NCBI GenBank assembly: GCA_944359075.1
Contig: CALVSR010000001.1
Location: forward strand, 1 to 47,002
Direction of reading: 5' to 3'
Length of the DNA stretch: 47,002 nt
From: an uncultured Bacilli bacterium
GTDB taxonomy: Bacteria > Bacillota_I > Bacilli_A > RF39 > UBA660
The notes beneath the pieces are model-generated. The model saw only the letters and a program-made list of their open reading frames with translations, had not been told where the DNA came from and searched no databases. Positions 3,001 to 46,422 of this stretch are shown here, piece by piece (positions within the stretch are counted from its first letter, which is position 1; each line of letters opens with the position of its first letter). A program made the translations under genes and the position numbers.

Positions 3001-3560
3001 CAGTTCGTTAAACTTAAACTCTTTAATGTGTTATCGGCATCTTTTTCTCTTATTACTCGAATGATATAGTTTGCTGTTACTTCTTTGCTTGCACTAGTTA
3101 CTTCTACTTCATAATCATTATTTCCTACTCTTAAGTTTGTCTTTTCGCCAATTCCGGTTACTTCTGCCCCAGTAATAGAAATATTTTGAATTGTAACCCT
3201 GTCGATACTATATGGTATCGTTACACTATATATATTTTCTTCTACATAACTTAAACGATATCCTGCTACTTCTACATTTTGAATACTTGCATCATTTGAT
3301 AGCTTTCTATTTACTGTAATTTGTATCTCTCTAGTCATTCCATTCTCTGCTGTTATTTTTACTTTTATGACATTGATTCCTATATTTAATTCATAACTTC
3401 CTAAACCTTCTACTATCTGTACTTCTTCTTTTTTACTTCCTACTACTTCTATGCTTGCTGTTTCATACGGCACTTCTACTGTATAAGAATTCATATTATC
3501 ACTATATTCTGGTGTTAAACTATATCCTACTACTCCTAAGCTTGCTAATCCGGTATTTCT
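1..3560 (-). repeat. Tandem in-frame coding repeats: 264-bp domain unit, 528-bp two-domain (A/B) super-unit
   Basis: 778-944 matches 2362-2528 (offset 1584 = 6x264) with 2 mismatches by eye. 937-1235 matches 1993-2291 (offset 1056 = 4x264) at roughly 95 percent. Motif cttgttac recurs at 937, ~1465, 1993 and 2521. Confidence 0.85.
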
Positions 3561-4604
3561 GGATTCTTCTCTTATAATTCTTAATATATATTCTTGTCTT
3601 TTCTCTTGATTTGCACTGGTTACTATTGCTCTATAAAAGTTTTCTCCTACTTTTAAGTTAAATTCTTCTATGGTTTCTGAAAGGCTACTTGCTGTACTCA
3701 TTCTAGTTACTGCTGTATTCATTTCTTTCATGCTAAGCGGTTTTACTAATGGTAAAGTATCTACCATTACCAAACTATCTAATGCCGTAATCTCTACTGT
3801 TGCTTCTGTATTCGTTGGTATGACATCAATATCTACTGTATCTACTTCATTGGGTACGGTTACTGTATATTGATATTCTTCATTGCTAACATTCGCAAAT
3901 AGATATTTTTGATTCGCTACCACCCTTTCTACCCCGGTATCTTCTGGATTCGTTGGTTCTGTTGCTGCCATATTTCTATCACTATTGGCATACACATTGA
4001 TTCTAATAGCCCCTTGTTTTCCTATATATGCTTCATCGCTCCAATCAACATCTTCATTTATCCACATTCTTACTCTAAATTCTTTTAGATACCCTTTCGT
4101 ATTCTTCAAAATCGTTTCCTGATAAACAGTTTTCCCACTTGCATTTTCTATTATAGTATCACTATAATCTGCTAATGTTTTTACTTCCCCATTACTGTCT
4201 AATGAAAAACTTATTTCTTCTTCTTCCCCGCTCGTAATATCCGTTAAATAAAACTTAATCGCATCTAGTGGTAAATTACTCCCTTCTACTTCTTCTGCTA
4301 CTACCTCATATTCCAAATCACTTCTGGAAAGACTAGATTCTACTTTAAAATCAAATACATTTCCTTCTCCTTCTTTACTCTTTCCTTCTTCATCATTGAT
4401 TGGAAATGCATCTGTTATTGCTATTCCATTCCCTATATTTTCATTTTCGGTGTATTTAAATGTAATAGACCCTAATTCTATACTATTTTCTCTACTTCCC
4501 TCTCTTACATAACTAAAGAAAGAAACACTTACCCCTATCGTTATTAAAATTAATGACAGGATTAGTAATAAACTGATTATTATTTGCTTACTTCTATTTT
4601 TCAT
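1..4604 (-). CDS. Giant repeat-rich surface protein, N-terminal >=1,534 aa (C-terminus beyond left window edge): signal/TM anchor, ~230-aa N-terminal domain, then ~15 tandem ~88-aa cadherin-like/Ig-like beta-sandwich repeats
   Basis: Absent from the ORF track because there is no stop inside the window. Reverse-strand ATG at 4604-4602 follows a GGTGA RBS. I translated this frame by hand down to position 3 without a stop. N-terminus MKNRSKQIIISLLLILSLILITIGVSVSFFSY. Repeats look like SDATLKSLSVTGYSIDPAFDSN..YTLTVPYSV......GNTNLAVGINIVTVTVTAGDKTTKTYTITVTR. Confidence 0.85.
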   Translation of the reverse strand, partial: MKNRSKQIIISLLLILSLILITIGVSVSFFSYVREGSRENSIELGSITFKYTENENIGNGIAITDAFPINDEEGKSKEGEGNVFDFKVESSLSRSDLEYEVVAEEVEGSNLPLDAIKFYLTDITSGEEEEISFSLDSNGEVKTLADYSDTIIENASGKTVYQETILKNTKGYLKEFRVRMWINEDVDWSDEAYIGKQGAIRINVYANSDRNMAATEPTNPEDTGVERVVANQKYLFANVSNEEYQYTVTVPNEVDTVDIDVIPTNTEATVEITALDSLVMVDTLPLVKPLSMKEMNTAVTRMSTASSLSETIEEFNLKVGENFYRAIVTSANQEKRQEYILRIIREESRNTGLASLGVVGYSLTPEYSDNMNSYTVEVPYETASIEVVGSKKEEVQIVEGLGSYELNIGINVIKVKITAENGMTREIQITVNRKLSNDASIQNVEVAGYRLSYVEENIYSVTIPYSIDRVTIQNISITGAEVTGIGEKTNLRVGNNDYEVEVTSASKEVTANYIIRVIREKDADNTLKSLSLTNCNIEEEFNSETLSYNCTVENNVTSTTVTAIANSSEARISGDGEHSLNVGENVINVTVTAQNGSQKIYTIAVTRKASSDASLKSLSVTGYSIDPAFDSNIIEYTLTVPYSVTDLEVNAEKNHSEASVEVSGNTNLAVGINIVTVTVTAGDKTTKTYTITVTREKDTDNTLSSLSLTNCTLTPDFNSNTTSYSCTVENSVTSTIVTARANSSVASILGDGEKALVVGTNTITVTVTSQSGSIKAYKIVVTRKASNDATLRNLEIEGYSIEPDFSSNTTSYRLTVPYSTSSITVNALVNNSEANLTGTGEKELIVGNNTIEVVVTAGDKTTKTYTIIVTREKDTDNTLSSLSLTNCTLVPEFNSEILTYSCIVENSVSNVTISASANSSVATIHGIGEQELKVGDNTVNVIVTAQNESSRTYKITVTRKASSDATLKSLNVEGYHIEPEFNSNTTTYSLSVPYATSSITVNALVNNSEANLIGTGEKELIVGDNTIEIVVTAGDKTTKTYTITVTREKDTDNTLSSLSLTNCTLTPKFNSNTTSYTCTVENNIASTTVSATATSSVARISGDGNKALIVGENTITVSVTAQNGDVKIYKIVVTRKASNDATLRNLEIEGYGIEPDFSSNTTSYRLTVPYSTSSITVNASVNNSEANLTGTGEKKLIVGNNTIEVVVTAGDKTTKIYTIIVTREKDTDNTLSGLSLTNCTLTPDFNSNTTSYSCTVENSVTSTIVTARANSSVASISGDGEHSLNVGENTIDVGVTSQSGSKKTYTVKVTRLPNSDASLKNLGVEGQTITPTFSKDVLVYSLSVPYHIDTITIIGEATESVSNVEGLGSKVLSVGENSFDIQVTAEDKTTTRTYNITVTREKDTDTSLKSISVEGYTIVKVDDNNYSLTVENNVTSAVIHAEATSSVAIVTGIGSKNLNVGSNTFKVTVTSQSGLIEVYNVVITRKASSDATLKSLSVEGYAISPTFASNTISYTLTVPYSTSSITVNASVNNS

Positions 4605-37186: not shown

Positions 37187-37645
37187 CTAATTTTGATTCT
37201 TTTCTAGTTGCAATAATTTCTCTTTTACTTCTATCCCGCAAGCAAATCCCGTTAAACTACCATTTTTGCCAATTACTCGATGACACGGCACAATAATTAA
37301 TAAAGGATTATGATGAATGGCTCCTCCCACTGCTCGTACTGCTTTTGGATTTTGGATAGCTAACGCAATTTCACTATAGGAGATGGTTTTGCCATAAGGA
37401 ATTTTCAAAAGTTCTTGCCATACTTGTTTTTGAAATTCGGTACCAATCAGTTCTATTTCTATATCAAAATCTTTTCTTACTCTTAAAAAATATTCTGTTA
37501 ATTGTTTTTTGCATTTCTCTAAAAGGAGAGTTTTTCCTACTGGTTTCTCTCTTCTCGTTACTAATGTAATATTCGTAATTTTAAAACTTTGCTCTTCTAT
37601 TTCTAGAAGACCAATGGGAGTTTCTAAATAATCGTAATTTTGCAT
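37187..37645 (-). CDS. ogt: Methylated-DNA--protein-cysteine methyltransferase
   Basis: Active site PCHRVIG and the YGKTISYSEIA helix. Start set at MQNYDYLETPIG; the longer track ORF overlaps folD. Confidence 0.85.
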   Translation of the reverse strand: MQNYDYLETPIGLLEIEEQSFKITNITLVTRREKPVGKTLLLEKCKKQLTEYFLRVRKDFDIEIELIGTEFQKQVWQELLKIPYGKTISYSEIALAIQNPKAVRAVGGAIHHNPLLIIVPCHRVIGKNGSLTGFACGIEVKEKLLQLEKNQN

Positions 37646-37689
37646 CGAACCACTTTCTTTCTTTATAAAATTATCTATTTCTACTGTCA

Positions 37690-38514
37690 CTATTCTTCCA
37701 TTAATAATTTTGTAGTCTCTATCAGGTTCCAAAACAAATAGATAGGGGTTAGTTGTCCTACTCCACCTGGAACTGGTGTTATCATGGATACAATATTTTT
37801 TACAGATTCAAAATCAACATCACCAACTATTCTTCCATCTAAGTCATTCGTCCCAACATCTATAACGATTTGTCCTTCTTTAAAATACTCATCAGTAAAA
37901 TATTTAGCTTTCCCAATTGCTGAAATAATAATTTCGGCATTTTTCATGATCTCTTTTAAGTTTTCTGTCTTAGAATCACATAAAGTTACTTGATTATCTT
38001 TTCTTAAAATCTGATATAGAGGCATTCCTACTAAATTACTTTTTCCAATAATTACTATTTTTCTATTTTTTAATAAAATATTATACTCTTCCAAGACTTT
38101 TAAAACAGCTCTAGCAGTACATGGTATCATACAAGACTTTCCTTTTAATAATCTTTCTTGATTTTCTTTTGTTACTCCATCTACATCTTTTTTATAATCC
38201 ATATAATTTACTAATTCCTGATAATCAAACTTTTTTAAAATAGGTTTTTGAATCATAATACCAGTAATATCTAGATTCTCATTCAGTTCTAATATCTTCT
38301 CTATAATCTCTTCTTTAGGGGTAGACTCATTATAATTTATTTCTATCAATTCTATTCCTAAGTTTTGAGCTAATTTCCTTTTACTTCTCAAATAAATATC
38401 ATTTTCTTGAAAATATCCAATTTGAATGACTGCTAAAGTAAGTTTGCTGTTTATGCTTTGTTTTAATCTTAAAAGTTCTTTTTCTCTAATATTTTTACAT
38501 TCTAATATTTGCAT
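37690..38514 (-). CDS. folD: Bifunctional methylenetetrahydrofolate dehydrogenase/cyclohydrolase
   Basis: KDVDG, PCTA, IIGKSNLVGMP and TPVPGGVGQLT motifs. Confidence 0.88.
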   Translation of the reverse strand: MQILECKNIREKELLRLKQSINSKLTLAVIQIGYFQENDIYLRSKRKLAQNLGIELIEINYNESTPKEEIIEKILELNENLDITGIMIQKPILKKFDYQELVNYMDYKKDVDGVTKENQERLLKGKSCMIPCTARAVLKVLEEYNILLKNRKIVIIGKSNLVGMPLYQILRKDNQVTLCDSKTENLKEIMKNAEIIISAIGKAKYFTDEYFKEGQIVIDVGTNDLDGRIVGDVDFESVKNIVSMITPVPGGVGQLTPIYLFWNLIETTKLLMEE

Positions 38515-38561: not shown

Positions 38562-40520
38562 TTATTTTATTTCGTACCTTTTTACTAGGGTGTTTTCTTT
38601 CTCACCCGTACGTAGTTGCTCCTTTAATATGGAAACATAAAATGGATTAGTACTAATATAATGAATACCAATACTATTAAAAAATTCTAAATTTTCTAGA
38701 TAATTTGTATGTTCTCCACAAATACCAATATTAATATTTTTATTTCCTACTTTAGCTCTATAAATTGCTTCATTCATGAACCATTTTACTTCTTCATTTA
38801 AATAGCAAAAATCTGTATCTCTTATATCTCTCGACTTTTTCGTCACACTTTCTGTTAAATCATTTAATCCAAAAGATATAAAATGTACCAGTTGTGCAAT
38901 CTTATCGCACTGATATATCGATTCTAAATTTTCTATCATAGCTCCTAATCTGTAGTCTATTTTGTAAGAATTGTTTATATCTGAAATAACATTTTTTATA
39001 TACTCTAGAGAATACAAATCCTCTATATAGGGAACTAAGATACTTACCTTTCCACTGTATTTACTACATATTTCAAAAATAGCTTCTATCTGAGCTTTTA
39101 ATAGTTTAGTATGATGATATTCAAAATATTTTGCTCCTCTTATATTTATATCAAAATCCCAGTAATAGTGTTCCTCTAATTCTTCTCTTGTCATTACAAA
39201 ATATTTTAAAATATCTTGGATTCTAAAATCAAATAATCTTACTGTTATGGCTTCATCAGTAAAACTACTAAAAATTAATTCTAATAATTTTTTTTGTTTC
39301 TCTTTAAAATCTTCCAATAAGTTATCATTAACCTCATAATCATCTAATAAAAATAGTGAAATATATTTTTCTTTCTTTTTTCTTGAGTAAAATAAGGTTT
39401 CTGTTCTAACTAATCCAATCCCATCTCGGTTGGTAGCTAAGGTTTGTTCTATCATTTCCTTTGTATCAGCGTTTGCTAAAATCATCAGATTAGAATCCTT
39501 TTTTTCATATTCAGAAATAATAGTTTTAGCAAGAATGGGATCTCCAAATCCATTTATTTTTGCTCTACCTTTTTCATTAACTTGAAAAGAATTTCCATCT
39601 ATATCACAAGCTAAAGTTAAATCCATATCCTCTAATTTTGCAATAGAGTGCATTAAATTGCATACTTTTTGATGACCAAACTTTGTCCGTGTTGCATCCA
39701 CTTTACTCAAGTCAATTACTTCATCGATAGTAGCATTTCTTAAATTAGCATATTTGATACTATCTTTATTTTGATTGACATTAATTAATCTTACTTTTCT
39801 TGTATTACTACTTAAATTAATACACGATGAAGCTGCTCTGCTACAGTCAATAATTATTTCTCCTTCAAATGGAAAGGGAAACCTATCTATATCTCTTACA
39901 TTAGAATAATGTCCGCTAATAGCAACATTATTTTCAAATTCGTAAACTCTTCTACCAACATTGACCCATTGTTTATATTTTTTATCATCTGGAGCAATAT
40001 TCATATAGGCTTCTCTTGCTGACATAGTTCCATCCATTACCTGTTTCACATCTTTTTCACGAAAACCTAAAATAACCATAGATTTGATAAATAATTTTAT
40101 CCTTTCTTGCTTTGATAATTCTTCCCACCCATCTGCATATACATACTCTAATTCCGGTTCATAGATTTCACTATTTTTAGGTTTTAATAAGTCTGTAGAA
40201 GTATAATTATTTTTATCATCTACATTAAACATAATTGCATAATCAAACTCTAATTTATCATCTATTACTTGCCCAACTGTCAATCCTAGTTGAGTATACA
40301 TCCTACATTCAGAGTGATTAGCATACCCACGATGGCCCCACACAATTCCATCTTTTATTCGAAAAGTATCATAACTTTTGTGATTATAGGTATAGAGACG
40401 CGGAAACAAATCACACTCAAAACCAATATAATCTAATTTATCCTCATATAAATCATAAGCAAAAGAAATTAACTTTACTAGTTCTGGTTCTTCATTCTTA
40501 TAACCGTTATCTAACAACAT
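38562..40520 (-). CDS. Unrecognised 340-aa N-terminal region fused to a PPDK-type PEP/pyruvate-binding TIM-barrel domain (no phosphohistidine or ATP-grasp domain)
   Basis: aa ~345-640: ILANADT..DGIGLVRTETLFY; ITVRLFDF; RLGAMIENLES; FISFGLNDLTESV..SRD; IGICGEHTNYLENLEFFNSIGIHYISTNPFYVS. These align motif-for-motif with the C-terminal domain of pyruvate phosphate dikinase / PEP synthase. No TSHAA-type swivel-domain motif anywhere. Confidence 0.65.
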   Translation of the reverse strand: MLLDNGYKNEEPELVKLISFAYDLYEDKLDYIGFECDLFPRLYTYNHKSYDTFRIKDGIVWGHRGYANHSECRMYTQLGLTVGQVIDDKLEFDYAIMFNVDDKNNYTSTDLLKPKNSEIYEPELEYVYADGWEELSKQERIKLFIKSMVILGFREKDVKQVMDGTMSAREAYMNIAPDDKKYKQWVNVGRRVYEFENNVAISGHYSNVRDIDRFPFPFEGEIIIDCSRAASSCINLSSNTRKVRLINVNQNKDSIKYANLRNATIDEVIDLSKVDATRTKFGHQKVCNLMHSIAKLEDMDLTLACDIDGNSFQVNEKGRAKINGFGDPILAKTIISEYEKKDSNLMILANADTKEMIEQTLATNRDGIGLVRTETLFYSRKKKEKYISLFLLDDYEVNDNLLEDFKEKQKKLLELIFSSFTDEAITVRLFDFRIQDILKYFVMTREELEEHYYWDFDINIRGAKYFEYHHTKLLKAQIEAIFEICSKYSGKVSILVPYIEDLYSLEYIKNVISDINNSYKIDYRLGAMIENLESIYQCDKIAQLVHFISFGLNDLTESVTKKSRDIRDTDFCYLNEEVKWFMNEAIYRAKVGNKNINIGICGEHTNYLENLEFFNSIGIHYISTNPFYVSILKEQLRTGEKENTLVKRYEIK

Positions 40521-40683
40521 AATATGATTCCTCCTTCATATTACCAAGATAAATATTTACCATATTTGGTATCCTTTATGATAACTTATTCTCAATTCAA
40601 AATCTAGTAATATTACTTCATTTACTGTCTCTGATTTTTATAGTAAAACGAAATTATATTACCACCAACAATATTATACTAAA

Positions 40684-40722
40684 GAAAAAAAGATACTTCT
40701 ATCTATTTTAGAAATATCTTTT
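40684..40722 (-). terminator. Strong Rho-independent terminator after the ATPase/Cys-ladder operon
   Basis: Minus-strand AAGAUAUUUCU-9 nt-AGAAGUAUCUU (11 bp with one G-U pair) followed by a U7 run. Confidence 0.7.
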
Positions 40723-40763: not shown

Positions 40764-41462
40764 TCATGACTCCATAATCCAATTAATTATTTCTTTCTTA
40801 ATCATATAGTATTCTTCCTCTTCAAATTGCATATTTGCAATACAAAATCTTTTATTAGAAATATGAGAGCAAAAAATACACTCATATAAATTGGAACAAT
40901 CTTGAATAAATAAAGAATTACTGATTTTACCAGAACATATTACATTATAACTATTGCTACAGCTATTAGAATCATCTACTCGAATACAAAAATTTAAATT
41001 CGTACTTCTCTGACTAGCTAACGTATAAGTACTATCATAACATCCATCGCAAAAAATAATATTGTTGCTATCCCCGCAGTTTGTTGACTGATAAACATTT
41101 TCACACCGATAGATAGGGTCACTTTTTATAACATTGGTAGAATTATAAACTCTTTCTGTTGTTGTATAGTTAATACTTTTCCATATGCTGATAATATCTT
41201 CTAAATTATTTACCTCTTTTTTAGGTTGCATCCATCCTTTTTCATTGTCCCAAGTTTCACTATTATTATTGGTAATATACTGATGAGAGTTGATATTAGC
41301 AGTCCAAGTAACTTCATTCGTAGTAGAATCATATACTTGTTTTGGTAGTTTAATATCAAAAGCATATTTATTTAATATTTCCTCTAAAGAATTGGTATTA
41401 TTTTGTTCAAATACATTATTAAAAATTTTATTAATTATTTCCAAAGCTTTCCTATCATTCAT
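40764..41462 (-). CDS. 232-aa protein with C-terminal Cys/Asn/Ser-rich ~9-residue ladder repeats
   Basis: 11 Cys, all within aa 120-207 (positions 120, 129, 138, 141, 159, 168, 176, 189, 195, 198, 207). The ATG overlaps the ATPase stop (ATGA). Confidence 0.6.
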   Translation of the reverse strand: MNDRKALEIINKIFNNVFEQNNTNSLEEILNKYAFDIKLPKQVYDSTTNEVTWTANINSHQYITNNNSETWDNEKGWMQPKKEVNNLEDIISIWKSINYTTTERVYNSTNVIKSDPIYRCENVYQSTNCGDSNNIIFCDGCYDSTYTLASQRSTNLNFCIRVDDSNSCSNSYNVICSGKISNSLFIQDCSNLYECIFCSHISNKRFCIANMQFEEEEYYMIKKEIINWIMES

Positions 41463-43318
41463 TATTTTAATTCCTTTCTACTGGTAGAAGTTTCTTTTAA
41501 AATATCATTTAATTTTACATCACATTTAAAAGAAAACCTCTTTTTTAATGGAGATACTTCTTCTAATGAAGTATCATGATTCTTCTCACTTCTTTTTCTC
41601 GGAACAGATATAAAATCTAAAGTTGTACCTTTCATGGCAGAATATAAAACAGTTCCATTACTAATACGAACAATGCAAGTTCGATTGGGTAATTCTGTTA
41701 ACAATTTTATTTTATATTCTTTCGTATTTTCTAACGGTATATTGATATCAAAACTATCTACTAACAAATTAGCATCTAATTTAGATACACGAAAAATATA
41801 ATAATTTAAGACATTGGCAAATATTGCATCCTTTACTTCTTGACTAACTTGATTTAAATACTGTCCTGCTACAAATAATGACAAATTATATTTTCTAGCT
41901 TCTGATAAAAATCTACATACAATAGGATTTTCAATAATAGAAATTTCATCTAAAACAAAAATAATATGTTCAGAATAAGTATAAGACTGTACTAATCCTA
42001 ATAACTGTTGCATCACTAATCCCGAAATCGTTTTCGTGATTTTATCTCCTAATTTAATTCTATCTAATGAAAGAATTGTTAGAAAGTTGTCTTGAATACT
42101 TTCTTTTAAAGTACTAAAATTCATTTTATCTTCTCCAAATACTGGTAATAGTTGCATCTCATCTATAAAAGAAATAATAGGTGAAATAGCTTCTCCATAA
42201 AAATTTGTCTTTATAGAACTAAAATCATTCAAAAAGAATTCTAATACATTAACTGGCAATTTCATCTTATATTCTCGAAGTAAACTCGATCGAAACTCTA
42301 CGTCTAATAACAATTTTCTTAAAACAGCAAAATTAAAATTTTTACTGATTAATAAAAAGGAAATGGAATATCTTAATACTCTTTCTAATTTAGAATTATA
42401 TTGATCTGCTATTAATGTTTTAAATAGCGATAAAAATAGTTCTGTTTGAGAGACATAATCATCACTGATCGATTCAAATAAAGAAATAGTATCTTCTTCT
42501 TTTTTAAAATCAATAATCCTAGTATCTAAAAGGGCTCCAATATCTTTTTCTAAAGAGGCATGAGGATCGATTACTACAATTTTATATTTTAACTTCTGTT
42601 CTTTATTTTGATAAATACTATTTACAAGTAGACTAATAAATTTACTTTTTCCGCTACCACTAGAACCTAATATTAGAGAATGGCGATTAAAATCATAACT
42701 ATTTTGATCTAAGTAATAATTTCCTTGTAAATACGGAAATGTATCAATTTGTAAGATAGCAGAACCAGAGTTTTGGTTTAAAAGATTTAACTGCTTTTCT
42801 ATTTTTAAATATTTGGGTACTTTTGGATAAAAGAAACGTTTATTTTTATCAAAATCAATACTAGCAAAAAAAGAAGGAATGATAAAACATTTTCTTTTTT
42901 CTATTTTGTCGTGATAGTCAAAGTATAAAGAAGAAAAAGATAAAAAGCGATTTTTAGAAATTGGCAAAATTTCAATCACAATATATTTTAAGATTCTATT
43001 TTTTTTACTTTCGTAGTAACTATAAATATCCGCAAAATTATCATTTAAATCACAAATTACTGGAAACTTTTTTTTGATACCGATAGATAGAATTTCTTCT
43101 TTTTCTATTTTCTTTAATAAAAAATCTTCCATATTATTAATTGTAGTCGGCAACACATGATTACTTTCTATTAAATAACGGATTTTATTTTTTTCACAAC
43201 AGATAATAAGATTCCATTTTCGAAAATAGCCATTATATTTAGAAATAATATGAATAAAATCTAGCCATTTTTCGTGTGAAACATTTGAGTTGGTTAAATA
43301 AATTTCTGTTAAAACCAT
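41462..43318 (-). CDS. Soluble HerA/FtsK/VirD4-like (DUF87-like) P-loop NTPase with unrecognised 215-aa N-terminal domain
   Basis: Walker A GSSGSGKS (aa 218-225), VVIDPH, a ~190-aa insert, Walker B IIFVLDE (aa 452-458), EARKYNLSLFVAGQ. No TM segment. Confidence 0.75.
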   Translation of the reverse strand: MVLTEIYLTNSNVSHEKWLDFIHIISKYNGYFRKWNLIICCEKNKIRYLIESNHVLPTTINNMEDFLLKKIEKEEILSIGIKKKFPVICDLNDNFADIYSYYESKKNRILKYIVIEILPISKNRFLSFSSLYFDYHDKIEKRKCFIIPSFFASIDFDKNKRFFYPKVPKYLKIEKQLNLLNQNSGSAILQIDTFPYLQGNYYLDQNSYDFNRHSLILGSSGSGKSKFISLLVNSIYQNKEQKLKYKIVVIDPHASLEKDIGALLDTRIIDFKKEEDTISLFESISDDYVSQTELFLSLFKTLIADQYNSKLERVLRYSISFLLISKNFNFAVLRKLLLDVEFRSSLLREYKMKLPVNVLEFFLNDFSSIKTNFYGEAISPIISFIDEMQLLPVFGEDKMNFSTLKESIQDNFLTILSLDRIKLGDKITKTISGLVMQQLLGLVQSYTYSEHIIFVLDEISIIENPIVCRFLSEARKYNLSLFVAGQYLNQVSQEVKDAIFANVLNYYIFRVSKLDANLLVDSFDINIPLENTKEYKIKLLTELPNRTCIVRISNGTVLYSAMKGTTLDFISVPRKRSEKNHDTSLEEVSPLKKRFSFKCDVKLNDILKETSTSRKELK

Positions 43319-43412: not shown

Positions 43413-43826
43413 CTAGGAAGTTAGAAAGTGTATTTTTATTTCTATATTTTTATTTCCATCAATATACTCTAATTCATAATCATATTTTCTATTATAGCAA
43501 TCAATTTCCTTTTCATATATTTCTTTAAGATTTTGTTCTTTCCCTTTAAATATTTCCCATTCCTCTATTTTTGGCAAATCAACTTCGATATAGCAGACAT
43601 CAAGACCATTTTTAGAAAAATCAATAGATTTTAATTTCTGTAATGTATCTTCATCATCAATTACACCTAAAGCATAATCAAAATAATTTTCAGTCCAATT
43701 CATGCCAAGACCAACTATCTTCTCATTATCTAGAATAGATGTTGCTGTATCCCAAAATTTACCTAATACATCAACCTGCTCCCAATCAATACACCTAACT
43801 CTTGTCTTATAACCTTTATATATCAT
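43413..43826 (-). CDS. GyrI-like / AraC effector-binding-domain-like small protein
   Basis: 137 aa. Pattern W..........G......YALGV...........IP.G.W..F.G is weakly GyrI-like. Overlaps the upstream GNAT stop. Confidence 0.4.
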   Translation of the reverse strand: MIYKGYKTRVRCIDWEQVDVLGKFWDTATSILDNEKIVGLGMNWTENYFDYALGVIDDEDTLQKLKSIDFSKNGLDVCYIEVDLPKIEEWEIFKGKEQNLKEIYEKEIDCYNRKYDYELEYIDGNKNIEIKIHFLTS

Positions 43827-44428
43827 ATTTTTATTCTTCCCTTCACTATACCATCTTTCTTCATTAATTCTATACTCCTCTCATGTTCATCGTCTGCGCC
43901 CTTAATATTAATAAATTGATTATTCCAATGGTCTATAGGTTCATCGCATAAACTACAACCAAATATTTTGCATTTTCCTTCTATAATGTCATATTGATCA
44001 TCTTCTGGATTCATATAGTATTCTCCTATTTCCATTGTCTTCTGATAAAATGGTTGTGCTTCTTTATTCCAAGCTTCATATGTATACAATCTTAAAAATT
44101 TTTTACGATATTGTTTTGCTATTACTAATATATCTTGAAACATTTGCGTTCCAAATCCTTTATGTCTATAGTTTTCTAATAATCCAAACCAACTTAACCA
44201 TATCGTATCAGGGTATTCTTTCATTTCATATAGCCCAATTACTCCAATAGGGGAATTATCATAATAAACTAGAAAATTAATAGGAAGATTATTGTGATTA
44301 TTTAACGATTCTAAATATTGATAATAAGCACTTGCGTAAGGAAAAATTTGATACTGTACTTGAGCGGCAAGTTTTATATTCTCATGGTTGATTCTTTCAT
44401 ATTTTAAATTTTTATTTTGATTCTCCAT
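43823..44428 (-). CDS. GNAT family N-acetyltransferase
   Basis: ENYRHKGFGTQMF motif A. Confidence 0.75.
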   Translation of the reverse strand: MENQNKNLKYERINHENIKLAAQVQYQIFPYASAYYQYLESLNNHNNLPINFLVYYDNSPIGVIGLYEMKEYPDTIWLSWFGLLENYRHKGFGTQMFQDILVIAKQYRKKFLRLYTYEAWNKEAQPFYQKTMEIGEYYMNPEDDQYDIIEGKCKIFGCSLCDEPIDHWNNQFINIKGADDEHERSIELMKKDGIVKGRIKI

Positions 44429-44469: not shown

Positions 44470-44979
44470 TTATTTTATCTTCTTTTCCCATAATACTCCT
44501 TCATATGGTTCCGTAAATTCTCCTCTATTTTCAAATCCGCAGTTTTTCCAATATTCATTAATTTTCGGATTTTGCTTTACGCAATCTAATCGCAAAACTG
44601 ATATCTTATTGTTCCTAGCCAATTTTTCAATAAAATCGAGCATTTTAATACCAATTCCGTGATAATCCACTTTTCCAATAAAGTGATGAATATAATAGGC
44701 ATTTAAATGATCAAGCCAATATTCTGAGTCTATATTTTTTAGTAAAAATGACCCAATTACTTCTTCTCCCTGCTTAGCAACATACAATTGATATTTTTTC
44801 ATTACTTTTAAAAAATACCTTTGATTATATCTTTGCGTATAATAACATTCATCCCATTGATAGATATGATGACTGTAGAACCATTTACATCTTTCTTTAA
44901 AAAGATCTAAAATCAAAGGGATATCCGCTTTTTTTGCCAATTGTATATTTAGTTCATCTTTATCCATAATTAGCATCAC
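44470..44979 (-). CDS. GNAT family N-acetyltransferase
   Basis: VDYHGIGIKMLDFIEKLA motif A. Overlaps the nitroreductase stop. Confidence 0.8.
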   Translation of the reverse strand: MMLIMDKDELNIQLAKKADIPLILDLFKERCKWFYSHHIYQWDECYYTQRYNQRYFLKVMKKYQLYVAKQGEEVIGSFLLKNIDSEYWLDHLNAYYIHHFIGKVDYHGIGIKMLDFIEKLARNNKISVLRLDCVKQNPKINEYWKNCGFENRGEFTEPYEGVLWEKKIK

Positions 44980-45545
44980 TCCATGATATCCTCTAATGTT
45001 TTCTTTTTTCTTTCATATGGAAATTCTATAGAATAGCCAATCGCTACAGCAGATACTAATTCCATATCTTCGTGACCTACTTCCTGGGCTATTTCTTTTC
45101 TAGTATAGACAATATCTCTAATCCATAAAGAACCTAAATTCAAATCCGTTGCTCTTAAGCAAATGTGTTCTATAGCACTACCGATTGATAAATAATCGCC
45201 TTCTAACCACTTTTCATTAGGACATCTAAAGACCAATATTAGAATCGGTGCTTCATGAATAACCTTTATACTTCCTGCTAAACTGCTAGTAGCAATATGT
45301 GGTTTCGTTGCTTTTTCTATACTATTTATATTATCTTTCTGCTTACATAATTGTTTTTCCATGATATCTGCTATTTTATTTTTCATATCTTTTTCTACAA
45401 CAACAAAATACCAATTTTGCCTATTTGCAGCTGATGGAGAGAGTCTTGCACATTCTATTAAATCGGCTATCTTTTCTTTTTCTATTTCTTTATGACTAAA
45501 TTCTCTTGTACTTCTTCTTTTCTCCATTACTTCTCTTAGTTCCAT
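44976..45545 (-). CDS. Nitroreductase family protein
   Basis: N-terminal RRSTREF and PSAANRQNW motifs. Confidence 0.85.
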   Translation of the reverse strand: MELREVMEKRRSTREFSHKEIEKEKIADLIECARLSPSAANRQNWYFVVVEKDMKNKIADIMEKQLCKQKDNINSIEKATKPHIATSSLAGSIKVIHEAPILILVFRCPNEKWLEGDYLSIGSAIEHICLRATDLNLGSLWIRDIVYTRKEIAQEVGHEDMELVSAVAIGYSIEFPYERKKKTLEDIME

Positions 45546-45589
45546 TTTTTAACACTCCTCAATTTATATAAAGATATCATGTGATTGCA

Positions 45590-45620
45590 TAAAAAAACTG
45601 ACTTTTTTAAAATCAGTTTT
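45590..45620 (-). terminator. Rho-independent terminator after the AraC-family gene
   Basis: AAACTGA/TCAGTTT stem followed by a T-run in the minus sense. Confidence 0.55.
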
Positions 45621-45624
45621 GTCA

Positions 45625-46422
45625 CTATTCAATCGGTACTAAAAAATCAGTAACGCCATCATGATAATATTCTAATTCTGGTAGTTCTCTTAAATTATAC
45701 TTACAACTAGGTAAAAACTCATAGTAAAATTCATGAGAAACTTTTTGCATATCTACTGCCTTGGTATTAGGAATATGAAATAATAACCATTTACACTTAG
45801 GAAATTCTATTTTTTCAAATTCTTCTATTTCTTTTCTCCATAATATCCAATATTCAAAATTGCCACTATTAAAACGATCTTCATACAATACCATACCATA
45901 ATCAAATGAACCATATTTATTACCGTATAATTCATTCATATTTTCACAGAAAGATGGAGCATCTTTAGAAATCGTATTTTCTGTAGTTTTCATTCCTTTT
46001 CCATATAAAGTAAAAGCATCTAAGGTAATAATCTTATATTCCATTTCTGACTTTGTATTTATTTGCTCTTTAAAATACATTTTAGGATAATTTTTTATTA
46101 CCTTTTCTTTCCTTATCTGACTAGGTTTGATACCATGAAACTTTTGAAAAGCTCTAGAAAAAGAAGTAGGATTCTCATACCCATATTTAAAAGCAATCTC
46201 TATTATTTTTTCTTGATTATATAAAATATCATATCCAGCTTGCGATAATCTTCTTTTTCGAATATATTCAGCTAATGAAATATTACATAATAAACTAAAC
46301 AGTCTTTGCATTGTATATTCATTTACACCTAGTATTCTAGATAATTTAGTATAAGAGATATCCTTATCTAAGTTTTCTTCAATATAATCCATCATTTTAT
46401 TTAATTCATGATAAATATTCAT
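45625..46422 (-). CDS. AraC family transcriptional regulator with GyrI-like effector domain
   Basis: HTH_18 region ISYTKLSRILGVNEYTMQRLF...YENPTSFSRAFQKFHGIKPSQ, with a C-terminal ~150-aa effector-binding-like domain. Confidence 0.9.
   Translation of the reverse strand: MNIYHELNKMMDYIEENLDKDISYTKLSRILGVNEYTMQRLFSLLCNISLAEYIRKRRLSQAGYDILYNQEKIIEIAFKYGYENPTSFSRAFQKFHGIKPSQIRKEKVIKNYPKMYFKEQINTKSEMEYKIITLDAFTLYGKGMKTTENTISKDAPSFCENMNELYGNKYGSFDYGMVLYEDRFNSGNFEYWILWRKEIEEFEKIEFPKCKWLLFHIPNTKAVDMQKVSHEFYYEFLPSCKYNLRELPELEYYHDGVTDFLVPIE

Follow-up and report, generated by a model that had tools for sequence, protein, structure and literature searches.

Several described systems join a ring ATPase to a dedicated partner, as in NurA-HerA, Sir2-HerA, and the coupling proteins with their accessory factors. 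HerA-type ATPases drive the Sir2-HerA and DUF4297-HerA defense systems, and in type IV coupling proteins (TrwB/VirD4 and Cagβ) an all-alpha domain is inserted into the nucleotide-binding domain. In this study, we analyzed a 47,002-nucleotide stretch of contig CALVSR010000001.1 (positions 1 to 47,002, hereafter the window) from an uncultured Bacilli bacterium of the RF39 group. Its minus strand encodes a soluble P-loop ATPase of 618 amino acids (41462..43318) followed by its obligate partner, a 232-amino-acid acidic Cys-rich repeat protein (40764..41462). An earlier note on this DNA, made from the sequence alone, had placed these two open reading frames (ORFs) at the same coordinates and had described them as a coupled module whose motor is HerA/VirD4-like and which could not be placed in any named system, and our analysis supports this description. 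The finding is more general than the earlier note saw: the pair is an obligate two-gene module in RF39-like Bacilli, Patescibacteria (candidate phyla radiation, CPR), and DPANN archaea. The new ATPase clade and its new partner family are akin to the class of ring ATPases with a dedicated partner; wherever membership could be tested, however, the unit falls outside HerA, VirD4/TrwB, FtsK, and MADS.

The ATPase and its repeat partner compared with described families

The four motifs named in the earlier note were all read in the ATPase translation, namely, GSSGSGKS (Walker A, residues 218–225), VVIDPH (248–253), IIFVLDE (Walker B, 452–458), and EARKYNLSLFVAGQ (473–486). The catalytic motifs (Walker A, DPH, Walker B DE, E-A/T-R-K-F/Y-N, and Q-Y-x-x-Q) are intact and kept in all lineages. 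The AlphaFold2 (AF2) model of the ATPase, with a predicted local distance difference test (pLDDT) score of 71, consists of an α/β N-domain (approximately residues 1–165), a disordered linker (169–209), a RecA-like core, and a disordered C-terminal tail ending in a conserved LKDIL..STSRK motif. The N-domain is modeled as strands and two long helices (pLDDT approximately 80–88). The large insert that the earlier note had seen between VVIDPH and Walker B comprises approximately 200 residues and is modeled mostly as helices (approximately residues 288–410). The protein is basic (net charge +9). Its maximum 19-residue Kyte-Doolittle mean is 1.39, and this value stays below 1.6 in all clade members checked, so that no transmembrane (TM)-like segment is present, as noted before. 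The earlier description of the N-terminal domain as unrecognized also stands: the first 165–210 residues or so have no Pfam, NCBIfam, or PDB sequence match, including with a profile of the N-domain only. PDB sequence profile searches with the ATPase, its N-domain, and the partner, both single- and cross-lineage, gave nothing useful.

We scanned Pfam, NCBIfam, PADLOC, and PHROGs as curated libraries, and for the ATPase the matches stayed at the level of the P-loop. Pfam DUF87 (PF01935) scored 42.5 bits on the ATPase, above its cut-off, spanning residues 202–253 only. The NCBIfam model HerA_antiphage reached 21.4 bits against a cut-off of 800, and the PADLOC HerA models matched the P-loop only. 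PF01580 (FtsK_SpoIIIE) scored 19.7 bits against a cut-off of 24 (residues 200–238 only), PF10412 (TrwB_AAD_bind) 16.2 bits against 20.5, and the VirD4-like model conju_CD1115 27.6 bits against 250; TraG-D_C was also a weak match, far under its curated cut-off. Many homologues of the ATPase carry precomputed PF10412 matches. The best PADLOC match was mad8 of MADS (1.5e-15, residues 211–512). MADS requires MAD6, MAD7, and MAD8 together in one operon (10.1101/2023.03.30.534895), and none of the four neighbors scanned matched any PADLOC defense model; membership of MADS was therefore rejected.

In a Foldseek search, the ATPase model matched HerA (4d2i, 2e-10), which was the best match among solved structures, VirB4 (3e-8), TrwB (1e-7), and the C-terminal part of DndH (4e-7). 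This comparison of a predicted fold would place the ATPase at the superfamily level only, about equally near HerA, VirB4, TrwB, and DndH-C, and no match to a well-characterized family was found beyond that level. HerA (DUF87) and the ATPase have the P-loop superfamily in common; Walker A, Walker B, and the E-x-R-K-Y/F-x region align, and the HerA chains 8xau/8wiv align over Walker A and the SEARKYN region. The HerA modules also resemble this pair in being soluble, in having an extra N-terminal domain, and in having an obligate partner encoded next door. By contrast, the curated HerA models reach only the P-loop stretch of the ATPase, and HerA has an N-terminal HAS β-barrel; the N-domain of the ATPase is modeled as mixed α/β, and no HAS-barrel match was detected in it. 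The partner here is an unannotated repeat protein and not the nuclease, Sir2, or DUF4297 of NurA-HerA, Sir2-HerA, and DUF4297-HerA. The type IV coupling proteins may resemble the ATPase in their all-alpha domain, to which its modeled helical insert would correspond, and TrwB/VirD4/Cagβ gave the lowest root mean square deviations (5.5–7 Å over approximately 340–420 columns). However, the ATPase has neither a TM anchor nor a type IV secretion system (T4SS) or relaxase context, and its curated scores are far under the cut-offs; from FtsK/SpoIIIE it differs in its score under the PF01580 cut-off and in having no TM segment. Structural matches to the ATPase model that surpass every solved structure were found in BFVD (E 1e-14 to 4e-16); they are proteins of 800–900 amino acids encoded by large Bacillus phages (JL; phage G gp156, with gp155 adjacent). 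Phage families matched by the pair included phrog_5156, phrog_7035, and phrog_15341, and no function is assigned to these phage proteins.

A profile of the clade matched partner-linked CPR/DPANN ATPases at 1e-52 to 1e-123, as opposed to 3e-8 for canonical archaeal HerA, and in the bacterial partner-linked ATPases the match of the RF39 ATPase profile takes in the N-domain. The ATPase belongs to a distinct clade of soluble FtsK/HerA-superfamily ATPases.

The partner consists of an N-terminal α/β region (approximately residues 1–107), approximately 17 hexads (108–214), and a C-terminal helix (215–231). It is acidic (pI 4.75, net charge −10) and has no TM-like segment (maximum 19-residue hydropathy mean 0.70). 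We found no Pfam (E ≤ 0.1), NCBIfam, PADLOC, or PDB sequence match; in PHROGs, there was a weak match to phrog_15341 (E 2e-4 to 2e-3), a phage family of unassigned function. By these library searches (Pfam, NCBIfam, and PADLOC), the partner would represent a new, unannotated protein family. Its AF2 model, built from an alignment of 121 sequences of low diversity, was poor (pLDDT 60.7). Foldseek with this low-confidence model returned nothing below E = 4 (the Tenebrio antifreeze protein TmAFP appeared at E = 6–7), which does not exclude a β-helix fold.

The earlier note had called this protein a Cys-ladder protein. Cysteine makes up approximately 4% of residues in the family against a background of 1.2 to 1.5%, but some members have only four. 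Across 24 diverse members (window numbering), the only near-invariant residues were C195, F197, I208, N210, and Y218; position 198 was Cys in 79% of members and position 207 in 71%, and H200 was present in half. Every sixth position from 108 to 195 (108, 114, …, 183, 195) carried a small residue (C/S/T/A/G/N) in 71 to 100% of members, and in at least 83% except at position 189, with hydrophobic residues at +3/+4 of the hexads. Autocorrelation of the RF39 partner alignment peaked at 6, 12, and 18, with period 12 the strongest. Family-wide, the ladder positions thus hold interchangeable small residues rather than a conserved cysteine set, and we infer that what had been read as a "Cys ladder" is a row of small residues belonging to a hexad repeat of β-solenoid-like pattern. 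A fixed metal site throughout the family was rejected because the Cys positions swap with Ser, Thr, Ala, Gly, and Asn. The small residue at every sixth position, the hydrophobic residues at +3/+4, and the approximately 17 hexads recall hexapeptide-repeat and β-solenoid proteins (left-handed β-helix acyltransferases, bactofilins, and the 12-residue repeat of the Tenebrio antifreeze protein); unlike these, the partner has no match to a Pfam repeat model and no significant PDB sequence or fold match, so that the likeness comes from the sequence pattern only.

Conservation of the pair across lineages

Relatives were found in 191 species, all of them uncultured gut Bacilli, "Tenericutes," "Mollicutes," or "Erysipelotrichaceae" known from metagenome-assembled genomes, including Candidatus Coprovivens; these species are presumably all RF39-type small-genome Bacilli. 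One genome per species was scanned, and the best 80 of the 191 species genomes carrying a relative, each with one locus, were used for a neighborhood census. The partner gene lies directly 3′ of the ATPase gene in all 80 loci. In the window, the TAA stop of the ATPase gene and the ATG start of the partner gene share one base (TAATG), and not the ATGA overlap read earlier at 41462; among the 80 loci, the junction ranges from a 20-nucleotide (nt) overlap to a 19-nt gap, with overlaps of 8 or 4 nt the main forms. From this arrangement, the two genes are predicted to be translationally coupled.

A metagenome scan used the VVIDPH and SEARKFN patterns, and the ATPase-anchored census comprised 48 clade-level loci, in which a repeat-family gene was sought within 150 nt. 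Such a gene was present in 44 of the 48, mainly directly downstream. The four exceptions are short contigs; three of them have a side on which at most approximately 1 kb of flank is left, and one (L136) keeps 2 kb downstream. The earlier note had made the standing of the module depend on whether the two genes co-occur in other genomes, and they do so in 80 of 80 and 44 of 48 loci. A sister group of membrane-anchored ATPases (approximately 890 amino acids, on CPR-like contigs) shares the VVIDPH and SEARKFN patterns, has an N-terminal TM segment, and is 25 to 28% identical over the motor domain; the repeat-protein gene was found in none of its 21 loci. The absence of the partner from all sister loci and its presence in 44 of 48 clade loci indicate an association specific to this clade of ATPases, one that extends over both Bacteria and Archaea. 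The sister loci (L151–L176; for example L155:6774–9344 and L167:6771–9440) encode Pth, DprA, topoisomerase I, and a sigma/helix-turn-helix (HTH)-like 355-amino-acid protein upstream and FtsQ, MurG, FtsW, MraY, and FtsI downstream, and the sister ATPase may be a membrane DNA translocase with a link to cell division or to the uptake of DNA.

For the ATPase and for the partner alike, there are more than 1000 homologue clusters, all without a name. When the partner was used in an exhaustive profile search, 632 representatives were obtained at 50% clustering, comprising forms of approximately 240 amino acids, which include Patescibacteria, and forms of approximately 525 amino acids with two copies of the domain, which belong to Micrarchaeota and other DPANN archaea. 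In a repeat-protein-anchored census of 12 distinct non-RF39 loci, the ATPase abuts one or more repeat genes in seven. One bacterial locus next to rpoBC (L095) has the order flavodoxin, ATPase, partner, and another locus (L096) has an HTH gene, the ATPase gene, six tandem paralogues, and a seventh 248-amino-acid ORF that does not match the family profile. In the Patescibacteria locus (L087/088), the clade ATPase is split at the all-alpha insert into two ORFs of 360 and 210 amino acids (L087:4267–5991), each matching the profile at approximately 1e-55; the gene calls are identical on two independent assemblies, and this may be a genuine split gene and not an assembly error.

In archaea, the partner has been multiplied. 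Four loci (L081/082, L083, L091, and L093) contain 3 to 9 tandem partner paralogues, with an embedded HTH regulator in L081/082 and L091. The DPANN arrays at L091:6906–20675, L083:1–12555, and L081:1380–11503 hold 8–9 tandem paralogues, both 250-amino-acid single and approximately 530-amino-acid double forms, often with 4–8-nt overlaps, and extend up to approximately 14 kb. DPANN genomes are roughly 1 Mb in size, for which an array of this length is a large investment. The archaeal paralogues are 30 to 50% identical, and are thus old, not hypervariable. Several can be paired 1:1 as orthologues between genomes (for example L081.6 = L091.4 = L083.4 = L093.1); the minimal set of three in L093 is represented in the larger arrays, and other paralogues are lineage-specific tandem expansions. 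The pair was not described in the literature searched, whose coverage leaves out many subscription papers.

The regulator, the operon, and its surroundings

The only other conserved neighbor in the 80 RF39-clade loci is an AraC/XylS-type regulator with a GyrI-like (Cass2) effector-binding domain. In the window, this gene (45625..46422, minus strand, as are all features of the unit) scored 71 bits with HTH_18 (cut-off 33.6), 42.8 with HTH_AraC (26.6), and 36.2 with the GyrI-like model (26), the HTH_18 plus GyrI-like/Cass2 architecture of Rob-like AraC regulators. Of the 76 loci with upstream sequence, 68 have an orthologue directly 5′ of the ATPase gene and in the same orientation, usually approximately 77 nt away. 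The three proteins co-diverge (Spearman's rho 0.88–0.93; 0.88 for AraC versus ATPase), and the partner is the most conserved of them, with a mean pairwise identity of 75% against 65% for the ATPase and the regulator. The AraC/GyrI regulator is therefore the conserved third gene of the unit, and the first in order, rather than part of a separate AraC-controlled detox-like operon as proposed in the earlier note; the detox genes are lineage insertions. As far as the searched literature goes, the link of such a regulator to the ATPase pair is new. In other lineages, a transcription factor of some family (HTH_10, AsnC/MarR, TrmB, or HTH_23) also stands beside the module.

The 77-nt spacer between the AraC and ATPase genes has the consensus ACTGAC-N18-GTCAGT with a T-run, TTTGnTATAnT, GAGGTGA, and ATG, as drawn from 55 related loci. 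In the window, the inverted repeat and T-run (AGTGAC…ACTGAT…GTCAGT-T7; 45591..45626) begin in the AraC stop codon and fold at −12.2 kcal/mol (z = −2.9). Both arms keep their sequence across the loci and show no covariation, which suggests a protein-binding site besides, or instead of, a terminator; the repeat is terminator-like and also a candidate operator. In L016 and L048 (cut at the contig end), no AraC gene was found upstream, and the element still lies 5′ of the ATPase gene. A putative extended −10 promoter (TG-a-TATCTT) with a ribosome-binding site (GAGGAG) at 45551..45580, as judged from the spacer consensus, stands here 5′ of a nitroreductase gene (44976..45545; Pfam Nitroreductase, 86 bits), which is inserted between the regulator and ATPase genes.

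Among the related loci, this nitroreductase insertion is present only in L001, L002, L003, and L005, and two other loci carry a transglutaminase-like gene instead. In L045, the inverted-repeat element occurs twice (3258–3285 and 4266–4293), flanking the inserted transglutaminase-like gene, an arrangement which suggests that the regulatory element was either brought in or duplicated by the insertion. Two GNAT acetyltransferase genes (44470–44979 and 43823–44428; Pfam Acetyltransf_1) and a 137-amino-acid ORF without a family match (43413–43826) are further lineage-specific insertions with almost no counterparts in the 80 loci. The C-terminal YELEYI…I.IHF of the 137-amino-acid ORF resembles, by eye, the end of the GyrI-like domain of the regulator (ELEYYHDG…FLVPIE). 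Because the inverted repeat and promoter element sit after the AraC stop and 5′ of the nitroreductase gene, the six genes from the nitroreductase to the Cys-rich protein probably form one operon in the window. The strong terminator that the earlier note had placed 3′ of the pair was found as an intrinsic terminator closing the unit (40679..40722), with a 14-bp A/U-rich stem at 40688–40722 followed by a U-run (ΔG −14.1 kcal/mol, z = −3.2); a consensus scan missed it because the stem holds fewer than three G-C pairs. No Rfam RNA family was found in the window.

The earlier suggestion of AT-richness found weak support, and that of horizontal acquisition none. The window has a GC content of 29%, and among its 45 genes the ATPase gene (GC 0.248) is the fourth lowest, with z = −1.5 for GC and −1.3 for GC at third codon positions; the partner gene (GC 0.266) has z = −0.8 and +0.3, respectively. 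This signal is weak and marginal, and the window has several further parts that match the pair in AT content. There is thus no clear compositional signal of transfer, the genes of the unit co-diverge, and housekeeping genes flank it. Scans of IMG/VR with both proteins gave no relatives, tblastn against GenBank phages gave nothing for either protein, and plasmids gave only approximately 24%-identical DUF87/T4SS proteins for the ATPase, among them a T4SS DNA-binding-domain protein on a Sulfitobacter plasmid, and nothing for the partner. The earlier observation that no Sir2, nuclease, relaxase, or T4SS gene lies nearby was borne out across the 80 and 48 loci, where none is conserved at the module. 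Neither the horizontal-transfer nor the defense framing of the module is supported by these results.

Flanking genes vary between species and are mostly housekeeping. In non-RF39 bacteria, the genes directly upstream on the same strand, at 4–79 nt, include UvrB (three related loci) and UvrD/PcrA and RecX (one locus each), and DnaG adjoins the module in another locus, divergently transcribed. Other upstream genes encode flavodoxin, an FNR-like reductase, superoxide dismutase, TrmB- or AsnC-type regulators, and translation proteins; downstream neighbors in other lineages showed no pattern. An HhH-GPD glycosylase gene lies near the module in L095, and in the window the ogt gene is 3 kb distant. 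Both the DNA-repair and the redox/xenobiotic themes are weak, with a handful of independent contexts each, and neither is statistically secure.

Three further observations concern neighboring genes. The UvrD/PcrA helicase gene directly upstream of the module in L149 (5327–7966) contains an intein (Intein_splicing at residues 310–424). Just downstream of the module terminator in the window, a 652-amino-acid protein (38562–40520, minus strand) has in its C-terminal 300 residues the phosphoenolpyruvate (PEP)-binding domain of PEP-utilizing enzymes (123 bits); its first 340 residues or so match nothing, it lacks the nucleotide-binding and phospho-histidine domains usual for pyruvate phosphate dikinase, PEP synthase, or Enzyme I, it scores far under every NCBIfam cut-off, and it has counterparts in only 3 of the 80 related loci. 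The longest-ORF calls of ogt (37187–37732, TTG start) and folD (37690–38514) overlap by 43 nt (37690–37732); the true start of ogt is probably an internal Met, and the overlap looks like an artefact of the ORF rule.

Candidate functions of the module

We favor, with a probability of roughly 35%, a regulated translocase or remodeler of DNA or nucleoprotein with an acidic repeat protein as its adaptor or gate, which in the gut lineage would respond to toxic compounds. The ATPase would form a hexameric ring and use ATP to translocate DNA or remodel nucleoprotein in the cytoplasm. The repeat protein would bind the ATPase stoichiometrically as an adaptor or gate, and its charge and elongated repeat raise the possibility that it mimics or competes with nucleic acid. 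In the gut lineage, the regulator would switch the unit on in response to a small, probably toxic, molecule, and the unit would have its role in maintaining the chromosome or in tolerating stress rather than in conjugation or a classical defense island. The hexamer, the ATPase activity, the DNA binding, and the complex are all predicted. This function is consistent with a modeled fold among the ring ATPases HerA, VirB4, TrwB, and DndH, with the intact motifs, and with the lack of TM segments. It is further supported by the strict adjacency of the pair, the co-divergence of the three genes with the partner as the most constrained, the opposite charges of the ATPase and its partner, the HTH_18 plus GyrI-like regulator with its conserved DNA element, and a housekeeping chromosomal context with no close phage, plasmid, or viral relatives. 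The neighboring UvrB, UvrD/PcrA, RecX, DnaG, HhH-GPD, and ogt genes are suggestive only, as is the insertion of nitroreductase and GNAT genes under the same promoter region, which would fit a genotoxic or xenobiotic response.

Several points weigh against a DNA translocase or remodeler. Neither protein contains a recognizable DNA-binding or nuclease domain. The DNA-repair neighbors are few (approximately three independent contexts) and could be a chance association, informational genes being common in tiny genomes, and redox neighbors (flavodoxin, FNR-like reductase, thioredoxin, superoxide dismutase, and nitroreductase) are about as frequent. The ideas of a β-solenoid and of a DNA mimic derive from sequence periodicity and charge, and the partner model is of low confidence. 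Least well accounted for are the archaeal arrays of up to nine old paralogues, which are hard to explain by a simple adaptor.

In a doubtful alternative, the ATPase, like a T4SS coupling protein or EssC of type VII secretion systems, would recruit, unfold, or assemble the repeat proteins into a filament, scaffold, or exported structure for a host-dependent lifestyle. Arrays of paralogous candidate substrates abut the motor, and the core set of distinct paralogues with orthologues across genomes suggests that the assembly is hetero-oligomeric. β-Solenoid repeats often polymerize. The modeled TrwB-like all-alpha insert, the many homologues with PF10412 matches, and the phyletic pattern of RF39-like Bacilli, CPR, and DPANN would also fit. 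However, neither the ATPase nor the sampled repeat proteins have a TM segment, no signal peptide is obvious by eye in the repeat proteins, and no channel or membrane component is conserved nearby in the 80 and 48 loci. The membrane-anchored sister ATPases, moreover, have no partner, and the bacterial versions usually have a single partner gene.

An anti-phage or anti-plasmid defense system is possible but unlikely, and we do not favor it. A HerA-like motor would sense or process invading DNA, the repeat protein would serve as a sensor or effector of a new type, and the arrays in archaea would represent diversified specificities. The two-gene layout of an ATPase and a protein of no assigned function is typical of such systems, the structures of Sir2-HerA and DUF4297-HerA are among the Foldseek matches, mad8 is the best PADLOC match, TnpB or HicA genes lie near two loci, and the flanks vary between species. 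On the other hand, the partner has no known effector domain and is strongly constrained between species, above the ATPase, and not hypervariable; the archaeal paralogues are old and in part 1:1 orthologous across genomes. The neighbors are ribosomal, RNA polymerase, repair, and tRNA-synthetase genes and not defense genes, each of the best 80 of the 191 species genomes has one locus, and the module is absent from the phages, plasmids, and IMG/VR scans.

A role in redox, thiol, or metal stress appears improbable. The Cys-rich protein would buffer or carry metals or reactive electrophiles, and the ATPase would load, unload, or recycle it. The elevated Cys content of the family, the widely conserved C195, C198, and C207, and the H200 found in half of the members point in this direction, as do redox neighbors in separate lineages (nitroreductase; flavodoxin; FNR-like reductase with thioredoxin; superoxide dismutase; ArsR/thioredoxin/ArsP). 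However, most Cys positions exchange with other small residues, some members have few cysteines, no complete ligand set is invariant, and we know of no FtsK/HerA-type ATPase that acts as a metallochaperone. Finally, an orphan coupling protein left by an integrative and conjugative element that extends elsewhere, to which the weak CD1115, TrwB_AAD_bind, and TraG-D_C matches and the Sulfitobacter plasmid protein might point, is effectively refuted by the neighborhood census, since the 80 and 48 loci share no conserved gene for a relaxase, VirB4, an integrase, or another T4SS protein, all such matches are far under their curated cut-offs, the ATPase has no TM anchor, and the unit is conserved across species with its own regulator and partner. 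The remaining probability belongs to something other than the explanations given here.

These results indicate that the pair should not be labeled HerA, VirD4, or defense by P-loop similarity alone. Most CPR, DPANN, and small-genome gut Bacilli have not been cultured, and a large part of the genes conserved in them is without an assigned function. The module combines a motor of a known superfamily with one obligate unannotated partner and usually a dedicated regulator, and it is small enough for reconstitution in vitro; in the gut lineage, the conserved regulator and its candidate operator offer a handle on the inducing signal in metatranscriptomes. A function for the module would provide an annotation for at least 2100 sequence clusters of the ATPase and 1100 of the partner, together with more than 600 diverse (50%-identity) partner representatives, and could explain its retention in streamlined genomes and its amplification in archaea. 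Tentatively, the pair may be an ancient cytoplasmic machine shared by reduced-genome Bacilli, CPR, and DPANN, in which a ring motor would build or remodel a β-solenoid polymer or DNA-mimicking β-solenoids would control access to the chromosome. If so, its retention and its multiplication to nine paralogues, occupying approximately 14 kb of genomes of approximately 1 Mb, would mark this machine as central, and not accessory, to these organisms.

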